In this document: positions 18,623-31,240 of the stretch, piece by piece
Position numbering within the stretch: position 1 is the stretch's first letter
Layout of the letters: each line of letters opens with the position of its first letter
NCBI GenBank assembly: GCA_963855085.1
Contig: CAWLBR010000001.1
Coordinates: 1-55,019 of the forward strand
Reading direction: 5' to 3'
Length of the DNA: 55,019 bases
Source of the DNA: Gammaproteobacteria bacterium
GTDB taxonomy: Bacteria; Pseudomonadota; Gammaproteobacteria; Pseudomonadales; Porticoccaceae
Program-made: the position numbers and the translations under genes
Notes under the pieces: generated by a model
Seen by the model: only the letters and a program-made list of their open reading frames with translations
Databases searched by the model: none
Told to the model about the DNA's origin: nothing

Positions 18623-20056
18623 TTAGAGTATATCGTTCTTGGTCATTTTAAAGGCCGCCAGAGCGCGCTCTCGAGACTCTTTGATATCGATAATCGGCGC
18701 TGGATAGTCAGTGCCAATTTCCACTCCTGCCGCAGCCAGAATCTCCGCCGGCGCCAACCAAGGCGCATGAATATATTTGGCCGGCATCTCCGCCAGCTCG
18801 GGAACATGGCGGCGAATATAGTCACCCTGTTTATCAAATTTTTCACTCTGAGTGATGGGATTGAAAATTCGGAAAAAGGGTGCGGCATCAGCACCGCAAC
18901 CAGCGATCCACTGCCAGCTTGCGCTGTTGGCCGCCAGATCCGCATCCACCAGACAGTCCCAAAACCAGCGCTCGCCACTGTGCCAGTGAATCAGCAAATT
19001 CTTCACCATAAATGAACCCACCACCATGCGCACACGATTGTGCATATACCCGGTGTCGTAGAGTTCACGCATACCAGCATCCACCAGGGGATAACCGGTT
19101 TTACCTTTTTGCCAAGCTTTGAGCTCGACGTCGGTATTGGCAGCCCAAGGGAAAACATTAAAACGCTGCTGCAAGTTATCAGTGGGTAATTTGGGAAAAT
19201 GGTAGAGCAGGTAATAGGAGAACTCACGCCACCCCAGTTCGCTCAAAAACGTATCCAGATTACTTTCGTTGTCGATTAAGGCTGCCGCATCATTGGCTGC
19301 ATACCAAGCTGTGTTGACCGACATCTGACCGAAGTGAAAGTAAGGTGACAGGCGTGAGACATTTTTCTTATTGGGAAAGTTGCGACCTTCGCGATAATCT
19401 TGAATACCGTTAAAGACAAAATCATCTAAGCGATCTCTGGCGCCATCTTCACTGATATTCCAATCACCATGGAGCTTTTTATCCCAGTCGATAGTCGGCA
19501 ATAGGGACAGGTCTTCGACAGTCAAACCCTTGTCGGCCTTAACCAGATCCATAGTCGTGGGGACTGGCAGCGGTTGCCGAGGCGCGACCTTTTGCAAACA
19601 GCCTCTGCGGTAATAGGGGGTGAACACCTTATAAGGGGTGCCATCTTTTTTCAGCACCTGCCAAGGCTCCCAAAGCAGAGAGCCATTAAAGCTCTGCACG
19701 TCGAGTCCCACCTCTTTTAAACTGGTCTTAATATTGGCATCGCGCTCGATGCTTCGCGGCTCGTAACAGCGATTCCAATAAACCGCTTTCGCCGACATGT
19801 CGGCACTTAGATCCGAGAGAATCGTCAGAGCATCGCCGGTGTAAATATTCAGCTTACCGCCGAGACTTTTATCCAGAGACTGCAATGCATGGTGCAACCA
19901 CCAACGGCTGGCGCCACCGAGAGTCCAATCCTGCTCGCTGCTCTCGTCAAAGATAAACACAGGAACAACCACGCCAGATTCACAGGCTGCAGCTAGTGCG
20001 GGATTGTCGGCAAGGCGAAGGTCCTGGCGAAACCAGTAGATAATAGGCTGTGTGAT
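18623..20056 (-). CDS. phrB: Class I CPD photolyase; start uncertain (ATC 20056 or TTG 20125)
   Basis: YWFRQDLRLADN, SRLSPYFHFG, ELGWREF, GKTGYPLVDAGMREL, GYMHNRVRM, FRIFNP. Confidence 0.93.
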   Translation of the reverse strand: MTQPIIYWFRQDLRLADNPALAAACESGVVVPVFIFDESSEQDWTLGGASRWWLHHALQSLDKSLGGKLNIYTGDALTILSDLSADMSAKAVYWNRCYEPRSIERDANIKTSLKEVGLDVQSFNGSLLWEPWQVLKKDGTPYKVFTPYYRRGCLQKVAPRQPLPVPTTMDLVKADKGLTVEDLSLLPTIDWDKKLHGDWNISEDGARDRLDDFVFNGIQDYREGRNFPNKKNVSRLSPYFHFGQMSVNTAWYAANDAAALIDNESNLDTFLSELGWREFSYYLLYHFPKLPTDNLQQRFNVFPWAANTDVELKAWQKGKTGYPLVDAGMRELYDTGYMHNRVRMVVGSFMVKNLLIHWHSGERWFWDCLVDADLAANSASWQWIAGCGADAAPFFRIFNPITQSEKFDKQGDYIRRHVPELAEMPAKYIHAPWLAPAEILAAAGVEIGTDYPAPIIDIKESRERALAAFKMTKNDIL

Positions 20057-20166
20057 AATGTGATCCTTTATATTTATTATTATATTTACGGCTGCTGAGT
20101 AGTGAGTAGATCCTCTAATGGGCAATAAACCCAGACCGCTATTACAGCATATTTAGCGGTTTACTC

Positions 20167-23051: not shown

Positions 23052-24026
23052 TTAATCGAAAAGCATTGACTGGGGCGCGTGGGGGTTTTCCATATCCCGA
23101 GCCAGATCGACAATCTTCTCTGACAACCACTGATGAATAGGCGAGCCCAGCGTTCGCTTGTGCTGTAGTAGCACCAGAGGAACCGTGCCCTCGTGGGGAA
23201 GGTCATCTGGATAGGTTTTAGTAACAATACGATAGAGCTCGCGCTCCATACCAGAACCAAACTTGGCAGATACCATCAAACAATCAGATGCGCAGATGGT
23301 TTCAATCGCTGTCATCAGCTGATTAGTCACCATCGCCTTAGAACGACTGCGCCCCTGCTCTCGCAAGGCGCGATCAAAACGGGCGTCGGTGCGGGCACTT
23401 ACCCGCTTGGCAATCAACAGATAGTACTGCACAAAGGGATATTGAAGAATTTCATCAAGGGTCACGCGGCTCTTTTTCGCCAGAGGATGTCCCTCGCGCA
23501 TCCAGATGGAGGGACTAAAGATCGCCAAGTGACGAGTCGTCACCTCCGCGGTGATCTCTCTTTTTATATCGATGGCGAAATCCAGCACACCCGCCGATAA
23601 CTCTCCAGCTACAGAGTCCGTCTCACTGGAGATCGATAAAATCACGCCTGGGGCATATTTGTTTAGCAGTGCAGTTAACTGGGATGCCAGTGATATAGCA
23701 ATAAATTCAGGGACAGCGATGGTGATCTCACCAACATAGCTAGCGGGGTCAAATTCCCCATCGGTGACCATATCGAGAATGCCATCCAACAACATTGGCA
23801 ACCGCAGCTGCAATTCCTGCGCCTTGGGGGTGGGAATTAATATATTGCCAGTGCGTGTAAATAGCGGATCATCGAGCTGCTGGCGCAGACGCTGCAGTAC
23901 CCGACTCATGGCCGGCTGGGTAATAAATAGCCGCTGTGCCGCGCGGGTAACGCTTTTCTCTTCCAACAGCGCCTGAAGAGCCACCAGTAAATTGAGGTCG
24001 AGGCGGGACAGTTTTTGTAAGTTCAT
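23052..24026 (-). CDS. LysR-family transcriptional regulator (NodD/YidZ-like branch)
   Basis: LDLNLLVALQALLEEKSVTRAAQRLFITQPAMSRVLQRLR...DPLF HTH, FDP linker, C-terminal HQWL. Confidence 0.95.
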   Translation of the reverse strand: MNLQKLSRLDLNLLVALQALLEEKSVTRAAQRLFITQPAMSRVLQRLRQQLDDPLFTRTGNILIPTPKAQELQLRLPMLLDGILDMVTDGEFDPASYVGEITIAVPEFIAISLASQLTALLNKYAPGVILSISSETDSVAGELSAGVLDFAIDIKREITAEVTTRHLAIFSPSIWMREGHPLAKKSRVTLDEILQYPFVQYYLLIAKRVSARTDARFDRALREQGRSRSKAMVTNQLMTAIETICASDCLMVSAKFGSGMERELYRIVTKTYPDDLPHEGTVPLVLLQHKRTLGSPIHQWLSEKIVDLARDMENPHAPQSMLFD

Positions 24027-24043
24027 GGGGTATTCTCAAGGTC

Positions 24044-24109
24044 ATTACAATTTGGTATATAAATAATGCGGACAATGCATTTGGATTATGACATAGCTAT
24101 GCGTATATT
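24044..24109 (+). promoter_or_regulatory. LysR-type operator pair and sigma70 promoter, copy 1
   Basis: ATTACAATTTGGTAT (24044-58), ATGC-N7-GCAT (24066-80), TTGGAT (24081-86)-N17-TATATT (24104-09). Confidence 0.75.
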
Positions 24110-24155
24110 GTCACACATAGGGCGACTTGCCCATAAACACCCACGGAGATAGACC

Positions 24156-24278
24156 ATGACACTCGTATACATACTAATCGGATTCACTGGATTAGCGGGT
24201 GCTGCAATTGCGAAAGATGACTTCGCGAACGTTAAAGCACCAAAACTCAAAGCTTCAGATAAGACGCTGACCCACTAA
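24156..24278 (+). CDS. 40-aa small protein with hydrophobic N-terminus (below the ORF-track cut-off)
   Basis: GGAG RBS before the ATG; MTLVYILIGFTGLAGAAIAKDDFANVKAPKLKASDKTLTH; has its own promoter and terminator. Confidence 0.7.
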   Translation: MTLVYILIGFTGLAGAAIAKDDFANVKAPKLKASDKTLTH

Positions 24279-24331
24279 ATCAGCGGCTTCGTACCAAACC
24301 CCTCTTAATCCTTGCTATAGGATTCTTTTAT

Positions 24332-24359
24332 AGGGGCCCTTCTTGGGCCCCTTTTTTTT
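24332..24359 (+). terminator. Rho-independent terminator of unit 1
   Basis: AGGGGCCC-TTCTT-GGGCCCCT followed by a T-run. Confidence 0.92.
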
Positions 24360-24441
24360 ATCTCGAAAAACTCATCTGGCCTATTCGCTAATTTCGCCAG
24401 AAGTAAGGAAAACCCTAAGCTATACCTTATGTACCAATACT

Positions 24442-24507
24442 ATTACAAAATGGTATGACTACGATGCAAAGAATGCATTTGCAGTATGGGGCGCAGATTT
24501 CTAATAT
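24442..24507 (+). promoter_or_regulatory. LysR-type operator pair and sigma70 promoter, copy 2
   Basis: ATTACAAAATGGTAT (24442-56), ATGC-N7-GCAT (24464-78), TTGCAG (24479-84)-N17-TAATAT (24502-07); same spacing as copy 1. Confidence 0.75.
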
Positions 24508-24513
24508 ACCCGT

Positions 24514-24637
24514 ATTGAAGTTGTACAGAGTTTTATAGATTTGCTGATTAGCAGGTCTTACACCGTTTTACCCCTACCCCTTCCTTTGAGACTTTCTCAG
24601 GATTTTTTAGGAGCCTACCTTTAGGCTCCTTTTTTTT
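24514..24637 (+). ncRNA. Candidate Hfq-type small regulatory RNA (~125 nt)
   Basis: Lies between promoter copy 2 and a + strand-only terminator; no credible ORF; hairpin 24537-24558, C-rich segment, hairpin 24582-24602, U-tract, terminator. Confidence 0.7.
24609..24637 (+). terminator. Rho-independent terminator of unit 2
   Basis: AGGAGCCTA-CCTT-TAGGCTCCT followed by a T-run; on the minus strand the stem is followed by A's, so it does not look like the osmC terminator. Confidence 0.9.
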
Positions 24638-30925: not shown

Positions 30926-31240
30926 TTAGTGGTGCTTTTGCTGATGCTTTTCTTTCATTTTCTCTCGATGTTGCTGCTTGGCTGCGCGAGCCTCTTCTTC
31001 CGTTAGAGAGCCATCGGCATCGCTGTCCATTTTCGAGAAACGCTCACGGCGCTTATCCGCCATTCCCTCCAGAGCCTGTTCGTGCTCCTCAGTGGAAACG
31101 ACACCGTCACCATCTTGATCCGCATGCTTAAACATACTTTTATGATGACTAGCTTTGCCTTGGTGATCACCGCCGTGGTGATCGGCAACAGCTCCCAGAG
31201 AGAACCCAGCCAACAGTGTTAAAACCAGTAAATTACGCAT
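30926..31240 (-). CDS. Small secreted His-rich EF-hand protein
   Basis: Signal peptide (AVA/D), EF loops DQDGDGVVSTEE and DSDADGSLTEEE; GAGG RBS. Confidence 0.85.
   Translation of the reverse strand: MRNLLVLTLLAGFSLGAVADHHGGDHQGKASHHKSMFKHADQDGDGVVSTEEHEQALEGMADKRRERFSKMDSDADGSLTEEEARAAKQQHREKMKEKHQQKHH

Follow-up and report, generated by a model that had tools for sequence, protein, structure and literature searches.

Few dual-function RNAs have been characterised, and according to PMC12612679 these come mostly from model or pathogenic bacteria. VcdRP of Vibrio cholerae is an RNA of about 250–300 nt with a small ORF, a 3' four-C seed, and an intrinsic terminator; VcdR pairs via its four cytosines with the start sites of uptake-system mRNAs, CRP represses the gene, its 29-aa protein VcdP acts as an activator of citrate synthase, and conservation extends to ORF and seed as a pair (PMC8672173). 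The same paper describes SgrS/SgrT of enterobacteria, a dual-function RNA divergent from the gene of its regulator SgrR, in which the pairing region is conserved and the ORF is present in only some species (PMC8672173). PhrS of Pseudomonas aeruginosa, a member of the order to which the window also belongs, is an RNA of about 210 nt that has a translated 37-aa ORF and a pairing region, is controlled by ANR, and activates pqsR (PMC12612679). In the Rhizobiales, a single LysR protein, VtlR/LsrB, is the direct activator of only a handful of short transcripts, among them sibling small RNAs as well as genes for small proteins, with a reported box GCAT-N3-TG-N3-T, and the VtlR-activated AbcR RNAs control transporter mRNAs (PMC7486931). 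C-rich anti-Shine-Dalgarno (SD) seeds directed at G-rich start sites are described for SisA-D of the alpha-r8 family and for sX13, which are non-coding and lack a shared LysR operator (PMC12559287, PMC3771888). SisA of Caulobacter represses TonB-dependent receptor mRNAs, prominent among its targets there (PMC12559287), and the C-rich loops of Xanthomonas sX13 repress G-rich start sites (PMC3771888).

We analysed a 55,019-nt stretch of DNA (the window) from a SAR92-group member of the Porticoccaceae, in which gene calls and Pfam/NCBIfam searches place a 40-codon ORF between a divergent lysR gene on one side and osmC-crp on the other. By analogy, its layout is closest to VcdRP and its regulatory logic to VtlR, and its target logic resembles that of SisA and sX13. 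An earlier sequence-only reading had likened the RNA to SgrS/SgrT and VcdRP, comparisons that hold as analogies of layout and find no link in Rfam, Pfam, or NCBIfam. Unlike VcdRP, the window unit has a LysR operator and a hydrophobic-helix peptide, and its ORF and tail have been lost independently. Unlike VtlR/LsrB and AbcR, which belong to another bacterial class, peptide and seed can share one transcript here, the operator differs from the reported VtlR box, and no AbcR match was found in Rfam. The label VtlR/LsrB was absent among the 60 listed PDB matches and the best 25 NCBIfam matches for the LysR protein, which among those listed is closest to other subfamilies. SgrS/SgrT, for its part, has no tandem arrays, and SgrR is, to our knowledge, not a LysR protein; neither Rfam SgrS nor Pfam SgrT matched here, nor did any Rfam model link PhrS to the window units. 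Across VcdRP, SgrS/SgrT, PhrS, AbcR, and alpha-r8, no Rfam or Pfam model matched (the libraries may lack some of these), and by the tests run the window system is a member of none of the compared families. From sequence comparison, it is best described as a hitherto unreported family of microproteins, encoded on a unit that has a LysR operator and a regulatory tail conserved in its own right. No paper on the locus was found in the open literature; subscription papers and supplements, possibly with small-RNA catalogues, lay outside the search.

Layout of the locus and its transcript

Features of the locus are given in Table 1. The sequence-only reading had listed a GGAG ribosome-binding site, an ATG, 40 codons, and 19 uncharged, mostly hydrophobic residues ending in A-I-A, all of which are present, and the Lys/Asp-rich tail that it saw after A-I-A contains five K and three D. 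Its 5' hairpin also exists, although RNAfold on the window retains four of the five pairs proposed. The 3' UTR is 81 nt long (24279–24359) and not 80. The unit-1 transcript most likely starts at 24117, and the stretch 24156..24359 singled out by that reading omits the promoter and the 5' leader. In the record of the cultured strain HTCC2207, the peptide is identical to that of the window at 39 of 40 positions, with one change.

Table 1 Features of the lysR locus, in window positions
Feature	Position	Strand	Remarks
LysR-type regulator	23052..24026	-	Pfam HTH_1 and LysR_substrate; divergent from the units; likely activator
Operator, unit 1	24043..24083	+	T-N11-A dyad at 24065-24081
-10 box TATATT	24104..24109	+	Conserved in homologues; predicted +1 at 24117
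5' hairpin	24120..24132	+	At least 4 pairs in 24/27 same-genus leaders, with compensatory changes
Shine-Dalgarno GGAG	24145..24148	+	Read from sequence; 7 nt before ATG at 24156
40-aa microprotein ORF	24156..24278	+	dN/dS 0.146; TAA ends at 24278
Hydrophobic helix, codons 1-19	24156-24212	+	Followed by K-D-D-F
C-rich single-stranded motif, predicted base-pairing seed	24296..24306	+	CCCC at 24299-24302; 38 copies
Small hairpin, then U-rich spacer	24307..24324	+	Stem in 38/38 copies
Intrinsic terminator and U-tail, unit 1	24332..24359	+	Terminator proper 24332-24352
Second operator and -10 box	24441..24507	+	Same register as the first, 398 nt further 3'
ORF-less small RNA, unit 2	24515..24637	+	Two CCCC runs, hairpin, terminator 24609-24630; conserved across the genus

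Several further features were observed around the locus. A promoter-like site for lysR (24085-24114, minus strand, 10/12 matches) overlaps the unit-1 promoter, as LysR autoregulation would predict. Database records P0008, P0011, P0012, P0126, and similar ones contain 66–84-aa calls whose first codon is an ATG within the operator, 5' to the predicted +1; these are likely mis-calls of the 40-aa ORF. In several lineages (L011-L016, L051-L058, and others), osmC and crp have been lost or moved from the array, and lysR and the units then abut trpC or a degenerating crp (L016). Elsewhere in the window, a photolyase/cryptochrome-like gene (labelled by eye; 18623-20125, minus strand) lies between purH-like and purD-like genes.

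Conservation of the ORF

The DNA upstream of lysR was examined in 90 loci, 30 from a family search and 60 chosen. ORFs of the family occur in 44 of these 90 loci and in 11 of 19 Porticoccaceae genera, as 56 copies with up to four in tandem. The ORF is complete in 27 of the 31 same-genus loci and absent from three; in the remaining locus a contig end truncates it. Two checks proposed by the sequence-only reading both came out in favour of a coding gene. Start codon and SD are kept in related loci with no in-frame stops, and an SD-like word precedes 55 of the 56 family ORFs. Pooled pairwise dN/dS over codons 2–23 indicates purifying selection, at 0.146 for the 26 distinct same-genus 22-codon cores and 0.168 for all 53, values drawn from pairs that are not independent and, for the distant copies, from sequences picked by motif. 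Third positions vary in all 22 codons, compared with 11 and 6 for the other two positions. Four other frames gave dN/dS values of 1.2–5.1; the antisense frame in register gave 0.27–0.29, yet it contains stops in 8 of 26 sequences. None of 1000 shuffles of the intergenic region produced a comparable ORF (SD, at least 30 codons, uncharged hydrophobic first 19). As judged from these sequence comparisons, the 40-codon ORF is a real gene under purifying selection.

Searches of peptide databases returned 119, 73, and 101 matches, essentially all short and named only hypothetical, with no Pfam domain where annotation was displayed. No Pfam or NCBIfam member scored above cut-off among 41 and 21 peptides, and Pfam, NCBIfam, Rfam, and PDB yielded no family for the peptide or the RNA. 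The ESM Atlas returned unnamed clusters only, under 0.9. DUF1328/PRK13682 and MamG were considered for the peptide and rejected, with weak scores far below cut-off that reflect generic hydrophobicity. In genus g3 (L074, L077, L085), unit 2 contains a 28–34-aa hydrophobic ORF that lacks I-A-x-D-D and has no clear SD; it may be a diverged or replaced peptide.

Outside the family, ORFs of 23–28 aa adjoin the same LysR clade, with an SD and the same operator register, in records from Halieaceae, Litorirhabdus, Pseudoteredinibacter, Exilibacterium, and other Pseudomonadales or Gammaproteobacteria. They have I/V-A-x-D/E/Q/N at the helix end and a stop 5–10 residues after I-A (n = 13). Against the family profile, 9 of 12 scored above all 100 of their own shuffles, and 6 of 12 above the best of 2331 N-termini of the window genome. 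The same profile run over 301 genomes of the order found no convincing match outside the family (three at E 0.005–0.01), so that it was the LysR gene alone that led to these short forms. They are likely homologous to the 40-aa family.

Nature of the peptide

The first 19 residues of the window peptide have a mean Kyte-Doolittle hydropathy of 1.95, and all 56 copies have one hydrophobic helix each with a mean of 1.5–2.5. AlphaFold predicts a single helix over residues 2–31, confident over residues 1–20 (pLDDT 94 and 91). In an alignment of 41 copies, I18 and A19 are invariant and L13, G15, A17, and D21 nearly so. Conservation is limited to the 19-residue hydrophobic helix and I-A-x-D-D; the tail after I-A ranges from 9 to 34 residues in the 56 copies and is unconserved beyond x-D-D.

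The sequence-only reading had offered two natures for this peptide, a single-pass membrane microprotein or a signal peptide that releases a 21-aa product. That a short secreted peptide is freed after A-I-A draws on the A-x-A found in most Porticoccaceae copies, which place small residues at -3/-1 and acidic residues next; acidic residues are common after signal peptidase sites. We nevertheless regard it as very improbable, since no copy among the 56 has K or R in its first six residues, the isoleucine at -2 is invariant (41/41) with no cleavage site requiring it, the tail is unconserved and variable in length, and the likely homologues outside the family would leave only 5–10 residues, 4 of 13 of them with M or F at -3. 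The short tails of these homologues and the lack of a basic N-region in any copy make a released 21-mer unlikely; together with M or F at -3, the short forms suggest that the conserved unit is a helix with an acidic boundary. The other option, an uncleaved single-pass membrane microprotein, is likely, being supported by purifying selection, the conserved start and SD, and the predicted single helix. Packing against a putative membrane partner is suggested by the invariant I-A-x-D-D and by small residues that form a stripe along the helix (G12, G15, A16, A19). MgtS and AcrZ are small regulators that act in this way.

The LysR-operator array

LysR matches were found in 141 of 151 family genomes, and the window protein scores below every NCBIfam cut-off for a named LysR. 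Only two copies of the operator pattern, whose T-N11-A dyad is the usual LysR box, are present in the entire genome (93.5% complete). One precedes the ORF unit and the other its ORF-less sibling, and the register of the operator to the -10 box is the same in distant families. From the position of the operator and its exclusivity to these two units we infer that LysR controls them, probably as an activator. Both units repeat the plan of operator, -10 box, short transcript, and terminator. The ORF is one unit of a small LysR-operator array, which the sequence-only reading did not describe.

Across the family, units are of three types: ORF plus tail, tail only, and ORF only (L034, L035, g9). Arrays with three or four peptides occur at L076, L086, and L087. 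Every retained two-unit array of the same genus includes an ORF-less sibling; three loci (L024, L025, L027) keep both units with no ORF, and two (L026, L028) have the ORF-bearing unit alone with its C-rich motif retained. Four g15 genomes without a unit beside lysR have copies elsewhere, two of which keep a 26-aa ORF and one of which (L417) has a decayed ORF and an intact tail; L414 and L416 are intact. Upstream of Arenicella-like and several further LysR homologues there is no unit. At L073, about 14 tandem copies of a 7-nt repeat lie directly 3' of the terminator of the third unit.

The RNA tail and the ORF-less sibling

The sequence-only reading had described the 3' UTR as built like the neighbouring non-coding RNA. 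Aligned to the 3' part of that RNA it scores 63, a value inflated by the shared terminator and U-tail, compared with 31 +/- 8 for 1000 dinucleotide shuffles, none of which scored as high. A 13-nt motif beginning with the C-run is present in 38 copies, on 24 ORF-bearing and 14 ORF-less units. The spacer from stop codon to motif varies from 14 to 62 nt on the 24 ORF-bearing units with the motif unchanged, and the stem after the C-run is retained in every copy with 8 different loops. CCCC is predicted to be unpaired with a probability of 0.97–0.99 in the full window transcript, 0.94 on average in isolated modules, and 0.21–0.99 across homologues. The unit-1 terminator shows compensatory change at 5 of 7 pairs in a covariation alignment in which the first hairpin was not retrieved for the two sibling types together. 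Its distribution marks the tail as a module of its own, kept whether or not an ORF is present.

Seed, hairpin, U-rich spacer, terminator, and U-tail are the usual layout of an Hfq-dependent small RNA, and an hfq gene is present in the genome. The conservation of the tail independently of the ORF and the presence of Hfq lend indirect support to the predicted base-pairing role that the sequence-only reading had assigned to the 3' UTR. No Rfam model matched the units at gathering level; the best score, 21.9 bits for either unit with the suhB/mmgR model, compares with a cut-off of 41. In four genomes of other families without this LysR, matches to a tail model were weak and mostly confined to the terminator.

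The transcript could instead be the mRNA of a small protein, with the tail a stabilising or Hfq-binding relic of duplication and the ORF-less sibling alone serving as the small RNA. ORF units without a C-rich tail do exist (L034, L035, L042-L044, L059), and the constant ORF-less partner in two-unit arrays of the genus would suit such a division of labour. Tailless ORF units, two in the same genus and four in g9, also indicate that the linkage of ORF and tail is not essential. A relic would not be expected to keep its motif constant while the spacer before it varies by tens of nucleotides, nor to persist where the ORF-bearing unit stands alone, as at L026 and L028, and we consider this account unlikely. 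Far less probable still is that the ORF is a leader peptide or translation-coupled switch for the tail, its product having no target of its own. Predicted folds do place the SD in a helix with the 3' spacer (unpaired probability 0.05 in the window and 0.05–0.59 across 27 homologues), but selection acts at the amino-acid level, some ORF units are entirely without a tail, tandem paralogues encode up to four peptides, and there is no downstream gene to attenuate. A dual function of the unit-1 RNA is likely.

Other tail variants were noted in the survey. Halieaceae units beside the same LysR clade (L128, L131, L141, L159, L179, L183) have a conserved TCCAGGTCC-like tail motif instead of CCCC, with the ORF present or absent in relatives. 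In genera g2, g8, g12, g17, and g18 (L046, L048-L050, L061, L065, L067-L072, L090), a single ORF-less RNA has a 5' hairpin whose loop bears a conserved motif with a core, CCTAGG, that is palindromic; this could be a second seed or a kissing loop. The window genome also contains a weak third match to the tail model (G000:C95:8336-8412, minus strand, E 0.013).

Traces of expression

Eight of 24 listed RNA runs were examined as assembled contigs, from which strand, ends, level, and processing are not readable. One RNA-library contig, which shows two differences, extends from the predicted +1 at 24117 to 24327, a weak hint of transcription from that site, and a second contig, from a separate study, joins ORF and tail. 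There is no terminator between ORF and seed and the contigs span both, yet contigs cannot prove one molecule. Contig depth over 24110-24355 is much above the flanks in X6, X8, and X13 and flat in X2, X7, and X24; in X20 it is greater over the tail than over the ORF. Depth of this kind is no basis for ranking expression, and the tail also attracts contigs of ORF-less paralogues; we therefore claim neither a level nor a processed fragment.

Candidate targets

In the window genome, GGGG lies at -20 to -3 of 13 of 27 TonB-dependent-receptor starts compared with 161 of 2304 other genes, a rate of 7% (p about 1e-8); 28 receptors were found, one was dropped as a truncated gene, and starts were chosen by signal-peptide score, not by SD. 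For the other groups, 24–30 loci were listed per search of 24–193 matches. Among the matches listed, GGGG precedes 13 of 30 receptor starts in the same genus, 8 of 21 in three distant genera (3 dropped), and 7 of 28 in g15 (2 dropped), the last rising to 11 of 28 if four apparently mis-picked starts are corrected by eye. Among those listed for other groups, the counts were 2/27 in genomes without this LysR, 4/29 in Halieaceae (1 dropped), 0/8 in Pseudoteredinibacter, 2/6 in G365 (1 dropped), and 3/15 in genus g84 of family f15, though its tail holds a C-run; g84 was left out of both pools. Pooled over the matches listed, 41 of 106 starts have GGGG in 11 Porticoccaceae genomes with a CCCC tail, compared with 8 of 70 in 10 genomes in which the unit shows no CCCC tail or this LysR is absent, a difference whose p-value is overstated by the kinship of the genomes.

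This enrichment makes TonB-dependent receptors likely targets, and they are the best lead among the candidates. It could also be a habit that the lineage has in its ribosome-binding sites. GGGGA is the form of most GGGG receptor sites, which leaves only 4–6 perfect pairs, and none of the 29 Halieaceae receptor leaders among the matches listed has the complement of its own tail motif. A genome-wide RNAduplex ranking was not specific, and a shared-target pattern search in five distant genomes found no common gene among 30 of 76 matches. Fur was rejected as a target, with GGGG retained in 1 of 30 relatives, as was the use of g15 as a natural knockout, since its genomes without units beside lysR carry units elsewhere. 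For a 104-aa His/Lys-rich exported protein with EF-hand-like repeats (labelled by eye; window 30926-31240, minus strand), a 13-nt pairing interrupted by a single bulge is predicted between its start site and the unit-1 seed.

Both functions may be real while the main tail targets are other than these receptors, the tail acting on proteorhodopsin mRNA or as a sponge for G-rich RNA. The proteorhodopsin gene (G000:C21:5714-6400, minus strand; L186) has an A-rich leader and an AGGGG complementary to both seeds, forming 7–8 perfect pairs with the two, and AGGGG is found at its start in 22 of 25 same-genus genomes, usually as TAGGGGTT after an A-rich leader. However, proteorhodopsin was a post hoc pick from 17 matches, it was found in only 13 of 55 further genomes, and its start is without GGGG in 9/9 g15, 2/2 g19, and 4/4 g7 cases, even though g19 and several g15 genomes have the tail. 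We rate such a shift of targets as quite unlikely, and TonB-dependent receptors remain our preferred candidates.

Proposed function and significance

We favour, at slightly better than even, a reading in which a conserved gene and a small RNA share one transcript. The neighbouring LysR regulator would sense a signal and likely switch on a transcript of ~243 nt. Its ORF would be translated into an uncleaved single-pass microprotein that inserts into the membrane and has its acidic x-D-D motif at the boundary. Working as an Hfq-type small RNA, the C-rich 3' tail would block ribosome-binding sites of the GGGG type, with TonB-dependent receptor mRNAs likely first among the repressed targets. The likely net effect would be a coordinated adjustment of envelope uptake.

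More tentatively, and with a probability that we place well short of even, the locus may represent a hitherto unreported LysR-driven cassette array of marine Gammaproteobacteria, in which microprotein and anti-GGGG modules freely join, split, duplicate, and move. The fused unit of SAR92 would then throttle TonB-dependent uptake and the synthesis of proteorhodopsin together, acting on their mRNAs, and the microprotein would tune a membrane complex.

No small-RNA study of SAR92 or the marine clade was found in the open literature searched, supplements being outside that search. A microprotein family and a small-RNA family, both new, come together in a single locus, with cultured carriers in HTCC2207, Pseudoteredinibacter isoporae, and Seongchinamella unica. 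Units with ORF plus tail, ORF only, tail only, a decaying ORF, and four-copy arrays are all present in nature, so that how dual-function RNAs originate can be tested directly. If the cassette-array reading is true, these states would form a natural series for the birth and decay of dual-function RNAs, and if the target lead holds, the locus would provide post-transcriptional control of nutrient uptake, perhaps including proteorhodopsin, in a marine clade.
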